Shown piece by piece: positions 15,398 through 57,214 of a DNA stretch of 64,000 bases. This DNA is from Octopus vulgaris (Eukaryota). A program made the position numbers and the translations under genes. The stretch's first letter is position 1. The number at the start of each line of letters is the position of its first letter. The notes beneath the pieces are model-generated. The model was given only the letters and a program-made list of their open reading frames with translations, was not told where the DNA came from and searched no databases. The stretch spans positions 163,122,001 through 163,186,000 of the forward strand of contig OX597815.1 of NCBI GenBank assembly GCA_951406725.2. Direction: 5' to 3'.

Positions 15398-15701
15398 TCT
15401 TTTATTCTTTTACTTGTTTCAATCATTTGACTGTGGCCATGTTGGAGTGGGGATGCAAGCACACTAACATCGGTTGTCAAGTAATGTTGGGGAAACAAAC
15501 ACAGATACACACACACATAGATATATATAAATATACATGATGGGCTTCTTTCAGTATCCATCTACCAAATCCACTCACAAGGCTTTGGTCAGCCTGAGGC
15601 TATAGTAGAAGACACTTGCCCAAGGTGCCACGCAGTGAGAATGAACCCGGAACCATGTGGCTGGTAAGCAAGCTTCTTACCACACAGCCACTCCTGCACC
15701 T
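15398..15701 (-). mobile_element. Family B SINE
   Basis: Reverse of GCAGGAGTGGCTGTGTGGTAAG...GCACCTTGGGCAAGTGTCTTC...GAAACAAGTAAAAG. Confidence 0.85.
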
Positions 15702-17399
15702 AAATAAATAAAAAAGAAACTTGACCATTTTCAGCAATTCTCAGACTGCAATTTCTCATTTGCAATTTACTACATCATAGTCTTCTCCGTTGGGAAGAGG
15801 TGCCTGCATTGACTAACCCTTTTATGGATGGTGTTTGTTATGAGCTTGAGGACCTGGTTATAACCCTAGTACTAGCTGCCCTCACCCAGAACTTTTGAAC
15901 AGCTACAGAGGATGAACACCAGTGCGTCTTTCCACAGGCTCAGAGGAGACACTGGTGACTCCATTTTACCCCAATAGAACAAATTGGATATCTCAGTAGG
16001 ATATTATGAACTGACTAAGTCACTTTACAGCATCCAATTAGTGAGGCTCTGTTTTCCAAAGGTCATCAGACTTTGTGTGCTGCTGCCTGTTCCCATCTTA
16101 AGTAGGCTTCTAGTACTACATTCCAACACTCTTACTCCATTACTCCACAATCATTGCTCTTACCTTGTTCTAAATCAGTAGCTTCTCTCCTCTCCTTGTC
16201 ATAGCTAGATATTGTTCTGTTATTCAAACTACTGCAACAATCCATATTGGAGAAATAGCCTAAGTATAGGTTAAAGAATTAGGGAACACTGGAGTGAGTA
16301 TGATGAAAAGAATAAAATATCTTTACCAACATTGTCATACAGAAAAACAATGGGTCAATAAACAATGCAGAAATGTTACTCTTACCATTCACCCAAAAGA
16401 CCTGATTCTATAATAGGTTACAGAGAATATAGATTCTGATTCAACACACATCCTCAATAGAAGGAATCAGTAGATTTATAACACACCAATAGCATTGCCT
16501 ACCACCATCACCATTGTAATAGAAGAATGAGTATAAAGTGGAATTAAACCCAACAAAATTCACTCACCTCTCCTCCCCCACATACACTCACATAAATACT
16601 TCTAGTAGGAGCTACAAAAGCAAAAAAAAAAAACAGACAAATAAAAATTATAAAGATGCAATGAAAATAAAATACACATGCTTGACAACATAGAGACGAA
16701 ACTTGGCTGCATAATATGCACAAGAAAATAAGTTGTAGAATCTGAATTCATTGAAAAAGTTACATTGGTGATGAGCAATTTCTGAGAAATTAGTCAACAG
16801 TAAAATAAAAGCTGAAGTGAACAACACACAATGCATGTATTTATTGGTATTATGACCCTCTCAAAGAATAAAAGCTTCTAAATATTCATAAGAAAACACA
16901 AAAATTATAAAATAGTAGCATTTTAAGGAAATTTGGTTTGTTCCCCTTGCTGTACATGAACAAGGTTTCCTTCATCCTTTTCATGCAATAAGTGCTATAA
17001 CAATATTTTCATTACAAAGAAGGTAAGACGGACAGGTGGAAGTGATGAAAGGGTGAATCTAATATTAATGAGGAATACAGATTGGAAGAGAAGTTTTCAG
17101 TGTTATTAGCGTGATTAAGAACTTTTGAGAGATGATGGTGACGATGTTCAAACTGAAGAATAAAGCAACATGTTTTTAAGCCTATATTAAAATCTTAATT
17201 TAACTATCATTTTAGATTGATCCAAATGGTTGGTTGTAGTTTCAGTTACATATATAGATAAACTTACATTATAATCATTGTATATCATCATCATCATCCT
17301 CATCATCATCATCCAGTGTTTTAAATCCAGGTTTTGTCTCTGATAATGGAAGTGGCTAGATCTACCTCAATGCCATAGCCACCACCATCACACCATCTT

Positions 17400-28150: not shown

Positions 28151-28984
28151 TGAAATGATTTATTGTTTCGTCCCCATCACTACATATTCTTCAGTTACTT
28201 GTGCTTTTCTTCATTGTGTTTCTGGTGGTTTTTGGTGGGGAGGCTTTGAACTTGTGCAGCAGTTAAAAATTATTATTATCATCATTGTTGTTGTTGTTGT
28301 TGTTGTTGTTATTATGCAGGTGGTGAACTGGTAGAACTATTAACATGCTGGGCAAAATGCTTAGAAGCATATCATTTGTCTTTACATTCTGAGTTCATAT
28401 TCCACCGAGGTCAACTTTGCCTTTCATCCTTTCAGGGTCAGTGAAATAAGTACCAGTTGAGCACTGGGGGCAATATAATTGACTTACCCCCTCATTAACA
28501 TTGTTAGTCAATTGGTTAACCATATAACCAATTGATCAATTGATTGTTTGATTAGTCACTCAGTCAATCAATCAATCAATTGGCTAGGTTTGTCAGGGTC
28601 CTTTCATCACCATTCATGGCCTTATCAATGACAAGCTCTCTTTCCATCTACTTCAGGTTTGATTCAAGTCTGTTTACGAGTTCCATATTTATATGGAAGT
28701 GAGTGAGAATATATGTGTGTCTGAGCATGTGTTTCAGAGGGGGACAAAAGGAAGGAGAGTGAAAGTGAGAAGATGTGTGTGTGTGTGTGTAATGACCCTT
28801 CCAACTTACAATAATGTCTGTTCTGACACAGGAGTTCACAGCAAGAATCTTGCAAATCATATACAGAAATGAAATGCTTTAAAACCTGCATTACCTATTT
28901 TTTATCATTTGCTTGTTTCCATCATTAGACTGTGACCATACTGGGGCATCTTGAAAGATTTAGTGAACCAAATTGACCCTAGTA

Positions 28985-36549: not shown

Positions 36550-37248
36550 ATGGCCGTCTGCCAGCCTCGTCTGGCATCTGTGTCGGTGGCACATAAAAAC
36601 ACCATCCGAGCGTGGCCGTCTGCCAGCCTCGTCTGGCACCTGTGTCGGTGGCACATAAAATCACCCACTACACTCTCGGAGTGGTTGGCGTTAGGAAGGG
36701 CATCCAGCTGTAGAAACACTGCCAGATCTGACTGGCCTGGTGCAGCCTTCGAGCTTGCCAGACCCCAGTTGAACCGTCCAACCCATGCTAGCATGGAAAG
36801 TAGACGTTAAACGATGATGATGATGATGATGATGATGAGATGCAGGAGTGGCTGTGTGGTAAGTAGCTTGCTTACCAACCACATGGTTCTGAGTTCATTC
36901 CCATTGCGTGGCACCTTGGGCAAGTGTCTTCTACTATAGCCTCGAGCCGACCAAAGCCTTGTGAGTGGATTTGGTAGACGGAAACTGAAAGAAGCCCATC
37001 GTATATATGTATATATATATGTATGTGTGTGTATATGTTTGTGTGTCTCTGTTTGTACCCCCAACATTACTTGACAACCAATGGTGGTGTGCTTACATCC
37101 CTGTAACTTAGCAGTTCGGCAAAAGAGACCGATACAATAAGTACTAGGCTTCCAAAGAATAAGTCCTGGGGTCAATTTGCATGACTAAGAAAAGGCAGTG
37201 CTCCAGCATGGCCATAGTCAAATGACTGAAACAAGTAAAAGAGAAAGA

Positions 37249-42975: not shown

Positions 42976-45023
42976 ATGCATGGAGTGGTTTGCGTTAGGA
43001 AGGGCGTCCAGCTGTAGAAACACTGCCAGATCAGACTGGAGCTTGGTGCAGCCTCCTGGCTTCCCAGACCCCGGTCGAACTGTCCAACCCATGCTAGCAT
43101 AGAAAACTGGCATTAAACGATGATGATGATGATGATGATGAATTGACCTCAGCACTTTTCTTTTAAGCTTGATACTTATTATATCATGTATTCGCTGAAT
43201 CATTAAGTTACAGAGATGTAAACACACCAACACCAATTGTCAAGTGGTAGTGAGGGTCAAACACAGACAGAAACATACACACACACACACACACATATAT
43301 GATAGGATTCTTTCAGTTTCCATCTATTGAATCCACTCACAAGGCTTTGGTCAGCCTAAGGATATAGTAGAAGACACTTGCCCAAGGTGCCATGCAATGG
43401 GACTGAACCTGGAGCCATGTTTGTTGGGGGAATAAACTTCTTACCACTCATAGCACAAACCAAAATAAAACCCTGAAGAAGTAAAATGAAACATTTGAAA
43501 AAAATGAAATATTTTCGATTTAAACAAAAACTCTTTACTGGAATCTAATCATTCATTGTTTTCAGATGTAAAACCAAAAACTAAACAAAAAAGATGGAAA
43601 ACTATTTTTGTTTATTCACATTAATTATTGAATGATCAATGCTTCTGATATATTTAGCATGTTGTTTTCTTTTTCATCTTTTTAATCTTACTGCCAGCAA
43701 GGATTTTCAATAATGCAGTTCTTCAATTTATAGCAGTGGTTTCTAATTTTTTGTTACTCAGCTCCCCCTTTTTTCATTGAATGGCCTTTTACAAATGTCT
43801 CTCAAAATACTTAGCAACAAAAATACATTCATAAAAAATAAGAGCAGACTTGAGGAAGTTTTATTGTTGGTTGGTGGTCTGTTCCCACAGTATTTGACCT
43901 CAAATAACATCTCTTGCAGATGTGCTGTGTTAAAAATACAATAGATATTGGAGAGGTAATATCTATCCCCACTTAAACATTGGATGTTCTGTTGGAACAA
44001 ACTATACTGTGGTAGATACCATGAGAGAACCTGTACTTTTTCTATATCACCAGTGGGGAGATAAATCCCCACCATCTCTAGTGCTGAGACCACAAGATCA
44101 TTTGATTTCAATCTCCCTGTATGCAACTGAGGTAATATATATACATTAAGAAAGCAATGAGCTGGCAGAAACATTAGCACGCTGGACAAAATGCTTAGCA
44201 GTATTCCATCTGTCTTTATGTTCTGTGTTCAAATCCCGCCGAGGTCAACTATGCCTTTCATCTTTTCGGGCATTGTGCCTAAAGTAGAGAAAACTATATA
44301 TACATTAAGTGATACATAAACAACACATATTTTTAATGAAATGGAAGATAATTTTTTGGCACAGTGGTCTATTATCCATATTTTCTTATAGTACCCCATT
44401 CAACATGGCTGGCTGGATATACATTACAATATTTGCATGAATTTACATCAAGGGTTGTACCCATAACACCCGTTGGCATGGTTAGTTGGCAAGATACTCA
44501 GTGTATTCTTCAAAACATCTATATATGTGGACATACATGGATATCTCTAATTGAGCAGATTTATAACTATCCCATGTTCTTGTAGACATAACTAGTCATA
44601 ACTGGTCATAACTAGTCTGTAGTTATCTAATGGTAATATAAACAGAAATAAAGAAAAGTCAGAATCAATAACATCAATATCTGTATCAAAAATTGAAATA
44701 ACATTGCAGTTACAAAACAAACTATAAAACATCAAATGCTTAGATCACCATCTAAGCATTTGTGAGTAAAATGAAAACTTATTTTATTAGCATTTTCTAA
44801 ATTGGTTTATAAGATTAGAAGTTGAACATATCCAATGCTCTTTGTTTTTCTTATTTGGCATTAGATCCGTTCTGATTGAGCAGATTTATAACCATCGAGA
44901 CTAGTCATAACCAGTCATATCCAGTATGTCATTTTGGCTAACATACCCAGCAGAAATCAGTCATAAGCATCCTATCTTTTTGTGACATGTAAGCATATGA
45001 CCAGTCATAACCATCTTGTTGTT

Positions 45024-45216
45024 AAGCAACAAGACAGGTAAGGGTGATCAGGTGATGGTCAAGGGCTTAGGGGCGGGAGACCCCAGACCTTGGAAAAAAA
45101 AATAACTTTGTTCATCTTGTTGTAGTCGAGGGCTCTTCATTGACGCCCGACACCACTGGGAGGTGGCCCTCGAAGTTGCTGGAAATGGAGATCTCCAGGT
45201 CCAAATTCTTGGATGG
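45024..45216 (-). mobile_element. ~190-bp retroposon with a candidate 5' HDV-like ribozyme (copy 1)
   Basis: TSD CATCTTGTTGTT / CATCTTGCTGTT (45012-45023, 45217-45228). Colinear with 50562-50752. Confidence 0.75.
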
Positions 45217-45484
45217 CATCTTGCTGTTTTGCCCAACATAGTGAATCTGAACCTTTATTATTCAGTACATCCTTTATTTTTGGAAGACTGTACTGCATGA
45301 TTTGAAGAAGTATTGACTCTCACCCCATTTATTTGCCCTATGTACTATGTTATCAGTTTAGCAGGGTTTATAAGATTGTGAATTTTTGAGCTGGAAAGAA
45401 AGATTATTGATGATTTGTTGAAATATCTGAGATTTTTTAGGAGTGTGTTTTTTGTTCTTTTTTTGTGTGATTTGTTGTAGAGTA

Positions 45485-50561: not shown

Positions 50562-50752
50562 AAACAACAAGACGGGTAAGGGTGAATGGGTGATGATCTA
50601 GGGCTTAGGGGCAGGAGACCCCAGACCTTGGAAAAAAAAAACTTTGGTCGTCTTGTTGTAGTCGAGGGCTCTTTGTTGATATCCAACACCACTGGGAGGT
50701 GGCCCTCGAAGTCCCTGGAAATGGAGATCTCCAGGTCCAAATTCTTGAACGG
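50562..50752 (-). mobile_element. ~190-bp retroposon with a candidate 5' HDV-like ribozyme (copy 2)
   Basis: Same ends as copy 1, an (AAC)n tail, and (CTG)n on both sides (TSD-like). Confidence 0.75.
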
Positions 50753-51921
50753 CTGCTGCTGCTGCTGACACTGGTGCTGGTGGTGGTGCTAACAAATTGA
50801 ACTCACAACAGTCCCAACTAATTCAGAGATATCAAAAAAAAAACAAAAAAAAAAAGTTAATGAGCCTGAATAGAAGGAACAGTACCTACAACCCTTCTGC
50901 AGGCCCTAATAATACTGCTGAGATCAATACAATTACTTTTCAGTTTGAAATTCTACAGGCTGGTACCTGTAGGGTGATTGTCTGGGAAGGTTGTGGTCAG
51001 GCAAAGAAAGGACTCTAAGAAGTGTTTAGTATAGATTGCAGGGGTTAAGATACAGATAGCTTGGATGAAAGAATGAGAAGTGAGTGAACCTTGGTGGCAT
51101 ACTGATCAACTGTTTAGAGTTGGATCATGATTGTAAGGTCATGAATTTGATTCTGCAGGAGTGGCTGTGTGGTAAGAATCTTGCTTCCCAACCACATGGT
51201 TCTGGGTTCAGTCCCACTGTGTGGCACCTTGGGCAAGTGTCTTCTACTATAACTTTGGGCTGATTAAAGCCTTGTGAGTGGATTTGGTAGACACATGGAA
51301 GTATGGTGTGTATGGAAGTTATACCTGATGAAAACTTATTTTACAGGGTTTTTTTGTCCAATCCATGCCAGCATGGAAGACATGTTAAATGACGATGACA
51401 ATAATAATGATGCTGCTGTTGTTGTTTAACCCCAGTCATCCCTGACAGGAAAGACATGAGGAAAAGCATTCTAGCTATAACATTCCATCATCTAGCTGTT
51501 TGCAGATGAAATTCATTAAAGACCCATATATAAAAAATGGTTTAAGCCTTAAGATCAAAACAGCACTTAATTATAAGTAACACTGCACACTTATGAGTTA
51601 TAATTCATTATACCTGATACATGTATAATATAAACAAATTTTTGCAATTCTTTGAAAATCTTAGCTGTGGAGATTGTAGTTTGTATGAAAATATCCTATT
51701 GTCCTTTTGCAATAAACAGGAAACACCATATGTTCCAGCATATAAATTGACTTAGTATAAAGTGTAAACATTAAAAAAAAACCTTCACTGTCTTTCCAAA
51801 TCCTGTTGCATTTCACATAGAAGTTTTGGTCCTCCAAAAATATCTTGGTGTATTCGTCAACCCATCTTTGTTGGCTGTGCACATTTCAGTTTGAAAAATT
51901 CAATTTGTAAGGTGGAAAATA

Positions 51922-55985: not shown

Positions 55986-56343
55986 CTTTACATGATTACG
56001 ATCTTACATTGACTTTCAAGTCTTCCTCAATTATCTCCCTTTAGGCTGTTTCTGAAGTTTTATTTTCAGTACTCTGTTATTAATTTTACTCGCGTCTGTA
56101 TCTTAGTAGAAACTGATGGATTAAAAAATCAAGCTACATAAACAAACGGCAGAAAAACCGTTCAGAAATTAAATAACATTAACATATTTTTATAATATAT
56201 ATATTATGTATTATAAGTTCAGCAAAAATTTAGATTCAAATGAATATGGTACTTAATTTAGATGCACCAGAATTTTGTATGGTGTTATCCATAAAAATTT
56301 GTGGGGTGATTATAATCAAAATAAGCAACAAGAATGACTCCGG

Positions 56344-56436
56344 TAATTTGGTACAATTGTTTCGCACTACATCATTTTATTAAATGTTGTAAGTATTGCA
56401 ACAGATTTAAGATGCTGTGTGCTCATCAGCCAATTA
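56344..56436 (-). ncRNA. Type I hammerhead ribozyme with an intact core
   Basis: TTGG-CTGATGA-GCAC...GTGC-GAA-ACAATTGT-A|CCAA. All core positions are present, with a GUA cleavage triplet. Confidence 0.75.
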
Positions 56437-56727
56437 TAGAGGTTTTCCATTAATACAAAAGTTTTCAAATCAAGTGGCAACATTATAGAGAAGGTAGATA
56501 TACAGACAAAGATGTAGATTTAAATTTTAAGAACATATGAGGTAGTGAAGTCCAACCACTGACTGACCAAGCTATGGCTGTACCTAACATAGCTTGGTCA
56601 GTCAGTGGTTGGACTTCACTACCTCATATGTTCTTAAAATTTAAATCTACATCTTTGTCTGTATATCTACCTTCTCTATAATGTTGCCACTTGATTTGAA
56701 AACTTTTGTATTAATGGAAAACCTCTA

Positions 56728-56820
56728 TAATTGGCTGATGAGTACTCAGCATCTTAAATATGTTGTAATACTTACAACATTTAATAAAATGATGTAGTGC
56801 GAAGCAATTGTACCAAATTA
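56728..56820 (+). ncRNA. Type I hammerhead mirror copy with GAAA changed to GAAG
   Basis: TTGG-CTGATGA-GTAC...GTGC-GAAG-CAATTGT-A|CCAA. Confidence 0.6.
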
Positions 56821-57214
56821 CCAGAGTCATTCTTCTTGCTTATTTTGATTATTATGTATTATATGTACATATTAAGACTTTTCAGTATACTTACATATAT
56901 ACATATATCTATCCATCGATCTAAAACAACAGGAATGCTAAAGGAAGGCCGGAATTTAAGTGAAGAGAAAACCAAAAGCTCTCATACTATTCATATAAAA
57001 TTTCCCGAGTAGAACCTATTATTACCTCTGCCTTTGAAACTATTTTGAATGGTGAGTTTGTTAACTTTGGCTTGTATTAGATAAACTATTTATTACTGTT
57101 ACTAAATTTTCTACAGCCTCCTACACATTCCATGACTAACAGTGAGATCGATCTGGTACTGGACAATTGGATTATTTTTCTGGGTTTTTTTACTTAATTT
57201 TTACTTAATTTCTT

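Follow-up and report, generated by a model that had tools for sequence, protein, structure and literature searches.

A short minus-strand retroposon and its family

The window, i.e. the whole stretch of 64,000 nt analysed here, carries on its minus strand a short retroposon of 194 bp (copy 1, 45217-45024) bounded by target site duplications (TSDs), the parts of which are listed in Table 1. A previous reading of the letters alone (the sequence-only reading) had placed a TSD-flanked short element here, and this was confirmed, but the element is one base longer: 31 of the 32 copies aligned carry a G just ahead of the proposed start, hence the element starts with the G at 45217 and not with the C at 45216. 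The second copy described in the same reading, with a shared 5' end, lies at 50753-50562 and is 89% identical to copy 1. The lack of a tRNA head was borne out as well; ARAGORN detected 0 tRNA genes and Rfam, searched with copy 1, returned just three chance matches (E 6-8) and no relevant family, so that the element falls outside the tRNA-derived SINEs. The window also holds a long inverted repeat at 56309-56855 (arms of 268 nt at 97%, spacer of 11 nt), several further families of abundant interspersed repeats, some 200-350 bp long (e.g. 15492-15702, 36860-37057 and 28269-28493), and many microsatellites.

Table 1. Features of the retroposon copies in the window, with pairings as predicted and model positions counted from G1.
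Feature	Position	Strand	Remarks
Whole short retroposon, copy 1	45024..45217	-	head resembling a ribozyme; middle with a U-tract, 5'-UTR-like; 3' end as in the LINE
5' TSD of copy 1	45218..45228	-	11 nt (12 counting the G at 45217), one mismatch to the 3' TSD
P1a 5' strand (model 1-3)	45215..45217	-	G1 at 45217 is element start and predicted cleavage position
Inserted hairpin A	45199..45214	-	6 bp, 4-nt loop; outer pair broken in copy 1
Inserted hairpin B	45179..45198	-	8 bp, 4-nt loop; abuts hairpin A
P1b 5' strand (model 40-43)	45175..45178	-	one pair broken in copy 1
P2 5' strand	45165..45173	-	9 pairs, bulged A on the 3' strand
P3, 7-nt L3, P3'	45152..45164	-	identical in the sister LINE family
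P1'	45145..45151	-	7 nt; pairs with P1b (4), then P1a (3)
Single G for a predicted 1-bp P1.1 (45144) and 4-nt linker replacing P4	45140..45144	-	
J4/2	45136..45139	-	family majority CGAA; copy 1 TGAA, predicted catalytic C lost at 45139
P2 3' strand	45126..45135	-	
Middle part of copy 1	45050..45125	-	U-tract and GC-rich hairpin
Last 26 nt of copy 1	45024..45049	-	common to the partner LINE 3' end
3' TSD of copy 1	45013..45023	-	overlaps the minimal (AAC)n tail
Copy 2	50562..50753	-	more decayed; one break each in P1a, P1b and P1.1; J4/2 CAAA

The genome (2.8 Gb, 227 contigs) was searched with the element, and the best 40 of 1,424 candidates were scored, all of them close to full length; a search by similarity to the query favours query-like copies. 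An 18-nt core word gave at least 1,528 exact genome matches against 0 for the reversed control, and as only 13 of 30 copies chosen by a 3' word hold the core word exactly, the true copy number must exceed 1,528. The core word had 0 matches in viral contigs.

Thirty copies were sampled, being the first 30 core-word matches listed in order of position; they were thereby selected for an intact core word, so the integrity of their P3 and L3 is not a finding. Their mean identity to the family majority is 0.96. The 5' start falls at model position 1-3 in 29 of the 30, with a G start in 27, i.e. the ends are sharp and not ragged, the 3' end is reached by 29, and a permissive search found TSDs of at least 9 nt in 25. 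Directly before G1 a CA is found in 21 of the 30 (flanks of L247-L276), often inside (CAG/CAA)n runs, an insertion preference. Elements also lie in tandem or closely spaced at L028, L047, L053 and L032:930-1573, with three within about 650 bp at the latter. In sequencing runs, contigs holding the element (X3, X5, X16 and X17, compared with L027:1480-1720) number thousands under three other organism codes and two under a fourth.

LINE families with ends like those of the element

At one element locus an unrelated stretch was found to end in the last bases of the element, and this revealed a partner LINE family with at least 42 matches; 30 were fetched, most of them ending in the shared 26 nt followed by (AAC)n. 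The longest fragment, of about 0.9 kb, holds an open frame of 300 codons with an RNase H (Pfam RNase_H, E 1.1e-11) and a C-terminal Cys/His motif. An RTE partner, first suggested by the (AAC)n tail, was rejected because of this RNase H. Neither a full-length master of the family (the ~0.9 kb being the longest 3' fragment) nor a sense-oriented head on one of its LINEs was detected in the assembly. A 3' end held in common with a LINE (26 nt plus (AAC)n), TSDs in 25/30 copies, a fixed length with 29/30 copies reaching the 3' end and no small-RNA head are the features of a bipartite LINE derivative.

The 5' end of the element is seen on the partner LINE only in inverted orientation. In 8 of the 30 fragments and in two more, making 10 (L061, L063, L065, L067, L073, L076, L077, L083, L101 and L112), the element head lies inverted on the truncated 5' end of the LINE, and inverted heads also occur in the sister family described below (L148 and L149). 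Six of the ten extend to position 1, and in three of these G1 is not explained by microhomology to the LINE, while the other four end short of it, two at 3-4 by microhomology and the remaining two at 7 and 27. We infer that the inverted heads are products of twin priming on an RNA starting at G1. The ends of seven of the ten pieces fall at model positions 108-112, immediately downstream of the ribozyme-like head, and this looks like a twin-priming hot spot adjoining it; L065 and L083 have one common junction and are possibly not independent.

A loop variant of the inverted heads is also present in 9 short copies; in two long inverted heads it is joined by a second variant that those 9 lack, which fits a LINE template. 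At L112:1358-1371 the inverted head runs 14 nt, including an ATG, beyond position 169 (in the short element, the junction to the 3' end); these 14 nt, a single occurrence in the genome, may be the start of the lost LINE ORF. No longer continuation was found in the contigs of four sequencing runs. As inverted heads on LINE fragments reach model positions 148 and 169, the middle part of copy 1 would be a remainder of the LINE 5' UTR, and we infer that the partner family's own LINE carried the head in sense.

A sister family with 46-52% protein identity to the partner LINE was found by protein search. Its member L146:2308-6965 (G000:C10) is a near full-length, degraded copy of 4.66 kb bounded by TSDs of 12-13 nt, with an (AAC)n tail, and encodes a 2A-like peptide, PHD fingers, APE, RT and RNase H (a weak Pfam match). 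It starts with a homologous head in sense, ahead of the ORF, and the sister head begins at the same G in 3 distinct places. An autonomous LINE sharing both ends, as envisaged by the sequence-only reading, was thus found in part: the partner LINE shares the 3' end, whereas the 5' end stands in sense only on the sister LINE. A longer insert in the sister head was rejected, as the sequence is TSD plus LINE junction. A third, more distant LINE family bearing RNase H (L152-L158, about 30% protein identity) was also detected; its fetched copies are all 5'-truncated and none carries a head.

RNase H after RT was found in the partner family fragment and, weakly, in the sister family, and a single ORF with an N-terminal 2A-like peptide before APE in the degraded L146 only, the N-terminus of the partner family being absent from the assembly. 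No protein named Ingi or L1Tc was returned by the homolog searches. Elements of the Ingi clade are reported to have one ORF and a 2A-like peptide (PMC3708506), while Vingi is reported to lack RNase H (PMC13708176). Hence Ingi is the best label on domain content. Of the earlier suggestion of an internally deleted Ingi/Vingi-like element, the deletion and the Ingi side stand, as the partner LINE has RNase H, and Vingi does not.

Predicted fold of the head

The segments P2, P3 with L3, P1' and J4/2 named in the sequence-only reading are all present on the minus strand. P2 closes with 9 pairs, and P3 has 3 bp and a 7-nt L3 with U first and G sixth, all intact in copy 1. A catalytic C followed by a purine and A is found in J4/2 of the family and of the sister LINE head. 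The CGAA proposed as ancestral is indeed the family majority, the first base being C in 24, T in 5 and A in 1 of the 30 sampled copies, and the loss of the catalytic C in copy 1 was correctly seen. After P1' there is one G, which may form a 1-bp P1.1, then four linker bases, CGAA and P2'; the C-G pair of P1.1 is possible in 27/30 sampled copies, without covariation. Where almost no P4 had been claimed, this family has none, and a 4-nt linker takes its place.

The contiguous P1 of the same reading, described as imperfect in copy 1 and followed by a J1/2 hairpin, was rejected. Within the first 46 nt of the family majority no 7-mer pairs with P1' at more than 5/7 positions (3 Watson-Crick), so a contiguous P1 of 6-7 bp is lacking. 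On the other hand, positions 1-3 and 40-43 taken together pair with P1' at 7/7 positions, all Watson-Crick, in the family majority, which was reached at the same fixed ends in 11 of 200,000 shuffles of the first 43 nt; this split-P1 model was chosen after seeing the sequence, so that the significance is somewhat overstated. Hairpins A and B occupy model positions 4-19 and 20-39, and the P1 halves flank both without a spare base. The supposed J1/2 hairpin is in fact two abutting hairpins inside P1, and J1/2 is a single U. As P1a and P1b abut the two hairpins and both pair with P1', a four-way junction inside P1 is predicted. We therefore consider it likely that the head folds with P1 split 3+4 around two abutting hairpins, i.e. 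that P1 in copy 1 is not merely imperfect but most likely split by a 36-nt insert.

In the sister head the two P1 halves, again of 3 and 4 nt, are parted by one U instead of the 36-nt insert of the short-element family, and a short P4 hairpin stands where the latter has four bases. P3, L3, P1a and J4/2 are equal in the best-preserved copies of both. Among 19 shared P1, P2 and P3 pairs in a structure-anchored comparison, 14 are unchanged, 4 show two-sided changes (3 in P2, 1 in P1b) and 1 is broken; all two-sided changes stem from one comparison of two families, i.e. one branch, and the one in P1b is also expected from CpG decay on both sides. Of the P1/P2 covariation that the sequence-only reading looked to, two-sided changes are seen in P2 and P1b, and none in P1a. 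In an alignment of 15 heads (11 of the short-element family, 4 sister) 94.2% of 445 cells are paired, against 31-47% in slid controls, and the three P2 changes were recovered independently; MAFFT shifts the sister P1b by one column, so that this alignment omits the P1b change. A contiguous P1 of six pairs, one of them U-G, is possible in the sister head as well if it begins at position 3. No two-sided change was found in the inserted hairpins, which show one wobble-keeping variant and one loop variant, and a search for a third family with other loop sequences gave 0 genome matches. Distant relatives in metagenomes (80 loci, 490 kb) gave 0 matches to our own descriptor, and shuffles 1, 0 and 1.

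The core is intact in 12/30 sampled copies and the whole model in 8/30. L253 (G000:C1) is one of the intact natural copies, and in L251 the insert is partially deleted. Copy 1 has three defects, namely the broken pairs 4-19 of hairpin A and 41-69 of P1b and a T at 45139 in place of the catalytic C, and would itself be inactive. Folding of the nested part placed an intact copy ahead of 199/200 shuffles (z -2.3), and copy 1 did not stand out (z -0.9); the programs used cannot fold pseudoknots, and P1 was not predicted by nested folding. Rfam gave no HDV-like match at E up to 10 for copy 1 and up to 1 for the intact copy and the sister head. The earlier view of an HDV-type head thus holds for P2, P3, P1' and J4/2, and not for the P1 pairing or for the 5' hairpins as J1/2. 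Since P1 is found only as a split helix, we file the head as a variant of the HDV-like ribozymes, not a canonical member, as far as the predicted fold can tell.

Probable origin and predicted activity of the head

The fixed start at G1, the TSDs, the LINE-shared 3' end and the (AAC)n tail were all observed. We are confident that the element is an Ingi-type deletion derivative resembling NARTc and RIME, and just as confident that the head descends from an HDV-like ribozyme. The family master probably cut itself. Taken together, we favour, a shade more guardedly, the reading of copy 1 as a decayed copy of a short deletion derivative of an Ingi-like LINE, with a P4-less HDV-like head (the first 92 bases) whose P1 would be split 3+4 and which would cut at G1. 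In this scheme a copy would be transcribed by read-through from host DNA or from a promoter of its own, and bases 1-3 and 40-43 would both pair with the 7-nt P1' in a double pseudoknot. Hairpins A and B would be stacked one on the other to form a side arm of the four-way junction, leaving P1 a continuous 7-bp helix, and the C of J4/2 would cleave 5' of G1 and so remove the upstream RNA. An Ingi-like protein would then act in trans, binding the shared 3' end and reverse-transcribing the RNA into a nicked site, which would often lie in a (CAG/CAA)n run.

HDV-like ribozymes are reported seldom to have mismatches in P1 and to be harmed by them (PMC3774820), and a junction in P1 combined with the lack of P4 could therefore be crippling. 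The main rival, to which we give a clearly smaller though real chance, is a relic of HDV-like descent which no longer cuts, disabled by the insert and the loss of P4, with the 5' end set by an internal promoter at +1 or by a protein binding the fold. The 77 nt of L1Tc/NARTc double as an internal promoter (PMC3383444), inactivity is reported for some trypanosomatid SIDER heads despite adequate folds (PMC4035085), defects in P1 are reported to abolish cleavage (PMC3774820), and a catalytically altered sister subfamily still made at least 7 copies. Against this, the master retained the catalytic C, L3, the P1.1 G and 7/7 P1 pairs around the 36-nt insert, and the altered subfamily has upstream extensions and few copies while the main family has sharp ends and more than 1,500 copies.

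This subfamily was met among 12 matches to the sister head, 8 of which lie in short internally deleted elements of about 270-295 bp with a common deletion junction (L279, L280, L281, L282, L285, L286/L287 and L288), two of these matches being the halves of a single interrupted copy. All 5 copies that retain the catalytic position have A there. Ahead of position 1 about 41 non-simple bases are common to L279 and L280 and about 30 to L286 and L288, while L281, one of five headed subfamily copies, shows no shared 5' extension. The TSD of L280 lies 217 nt upstream of position 1; those assigned to L279, L281 and L288 are unreliable, lying within simple repeats. Among the 30 main-family copies upstream sharing is limited to simple-repeat sequence. 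The extensions of the C-less subfamily lend weak support to cleavage as the maker of sharp ends, in a comparison that comprises two extension lineages and a subfamily with further substitutions.

Further, the head might be an active HDV-like ribozyme that lacks a true four-way junction and has another P1, e.g. the 4-bp P1b alone, or a short P1a next to which the hairpins serve as a J1/2 domain. Structured J1/2 domains are reported to activate large HDV-like ribozymes (PMC4908430), P1a and the hairpins are without two-sided change, and the sister family permits an alternative register. We find this improbable, as the best contiguous P1 reaches just 5/7 pairs with 3 Watson-Crick while P1 of the R2 ribozyme is typically 6-7 bp (PMC3774820), both P1 halves abut the hairpins with zero unpaired bases, the start at G1 agrees with P1a, and the sister keeps both halves around one base. 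An independent SINE with a borrowed LINE tail, the inverted heads being template jumps to SINE RNA and the fold incidental, would suit the lack of a sense head on the partner LINE and the loop variant shared with 9 short copies, but is very hard to reconcile with the homologous sense head before the sister ORF, the four compensatory changes and the second variant of the two long inverted heads.

The predicted self-cutting head with a split P1, which we prefer, has close relatives among known systems. NARTc has its first 77 and last 30 nt in common with L1Tc (PMC3383444), and NARTc and RIME of trypanosomatids are, like the octopus element, short and non-coding and share with an Ingi-clade LINE about the last 30 nt and the head, the latter presumably so in the octopus element (PMC3383444, PMC3185411, PMC4035085). 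Their ribozyme, L1TcRz (Pr77), is described with an HDV-like fold from +1, a 3-bp P3, a 1-bp P1.1 and a start that is the predicted cut site, as is predicted for the octopus head, where the P1.1 is a possible pair. The octopus element differs in its animal host, an (AAC)n instead of a poly(A) tail, the lack of P4 and a P1 predicted to be split by a two-hairpin insert. Bipartite LINE derivatives have been described from the RTE, Ingi, Vingi and R2 clades, and six clades are reported to have 5' ribozymes (PMC5786205); in bipartite LINEs and SIDEs, as presumably here, the 5' and 3' ends of a LINE are joined by internal deletion without a tRNA head (PMC5786205, PMC3414825), whereas the 5' part is here tied to its own LINE only through the inverted heads and the sister family.

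HDV-like ribozymes without P4 or with a 1-bp P1.1 are known to be active (PMC3774820, PMC10879173, PMC3185411). In the P4-less silkmoth R2, abalone, minimal and theta ribozymes a few nt link P1.1 to the catalytic C, as predicted here (PMC3774820, PMC10879173), but these are described with a contiguous P1, while 36 nt would interrupt it in the octopus head. Large HDV-like ribozymes such as Agam-2 also have a peripheral helical domain near P1 and P2 (PMC4908430), in their case a J1/2 (P1.2) domain between P1 and P2 and not, as predicted here, inside P1. The sister family also resembles Ingi-1_AC, an Ingi-clade element of the mollusc Aplysia whose one ORF has a 2A-like peptide at the N-terminus (PMC3708506), a likeness by description; the word ribozyme is absent from the main text of that paper.

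A search limited to the literature brought up neither a multi-way junction within P1 of any HDV-like ribozyme nor an account of this family, and the main text of a recent octopus repeat paper mentions neither Ingi nor ribozyme. A prior description of the family or of a split P1 is possible. The overall system is already known, namely from the ribozyme-headed internally deleted Ingi elements of trypanosomatids, while the predicted branched-P1 architecture of an HDV ribozyme is likely to be new. The chances seem about even that a perfect four-way junction in P1, combined with the lack of P4, occurs here for the first time in a natural HDV-like ribozyme, one active enough to seed more than 1,500 copies, with a one-base-bulge sister and a catalytically dead, 5'-ragged subfamily in the same genome as natural controls.

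The cleavage site lies in P1, a helix considered not to tolerate defects. If the predicted fold is true, a 36-nt two-hairpin branch in P1 of a P4-less ribozyme would widen the known HDV scaffold and provide a new insertion point for RNA engineering. The C-bearing, sharp-ended family beside the C-less, 5'-extended subfamily would make a rare natural comparison of cleavage and internal promoter in setting the 5' ends of Ingi-type elements. Further, descriptors requiring a contiguous P1 would miss such ribozymes, a blind spot of motif searches, and as they would overlook the branched-P1 class, Ingi-type ribozymes in animals may be undercounted.
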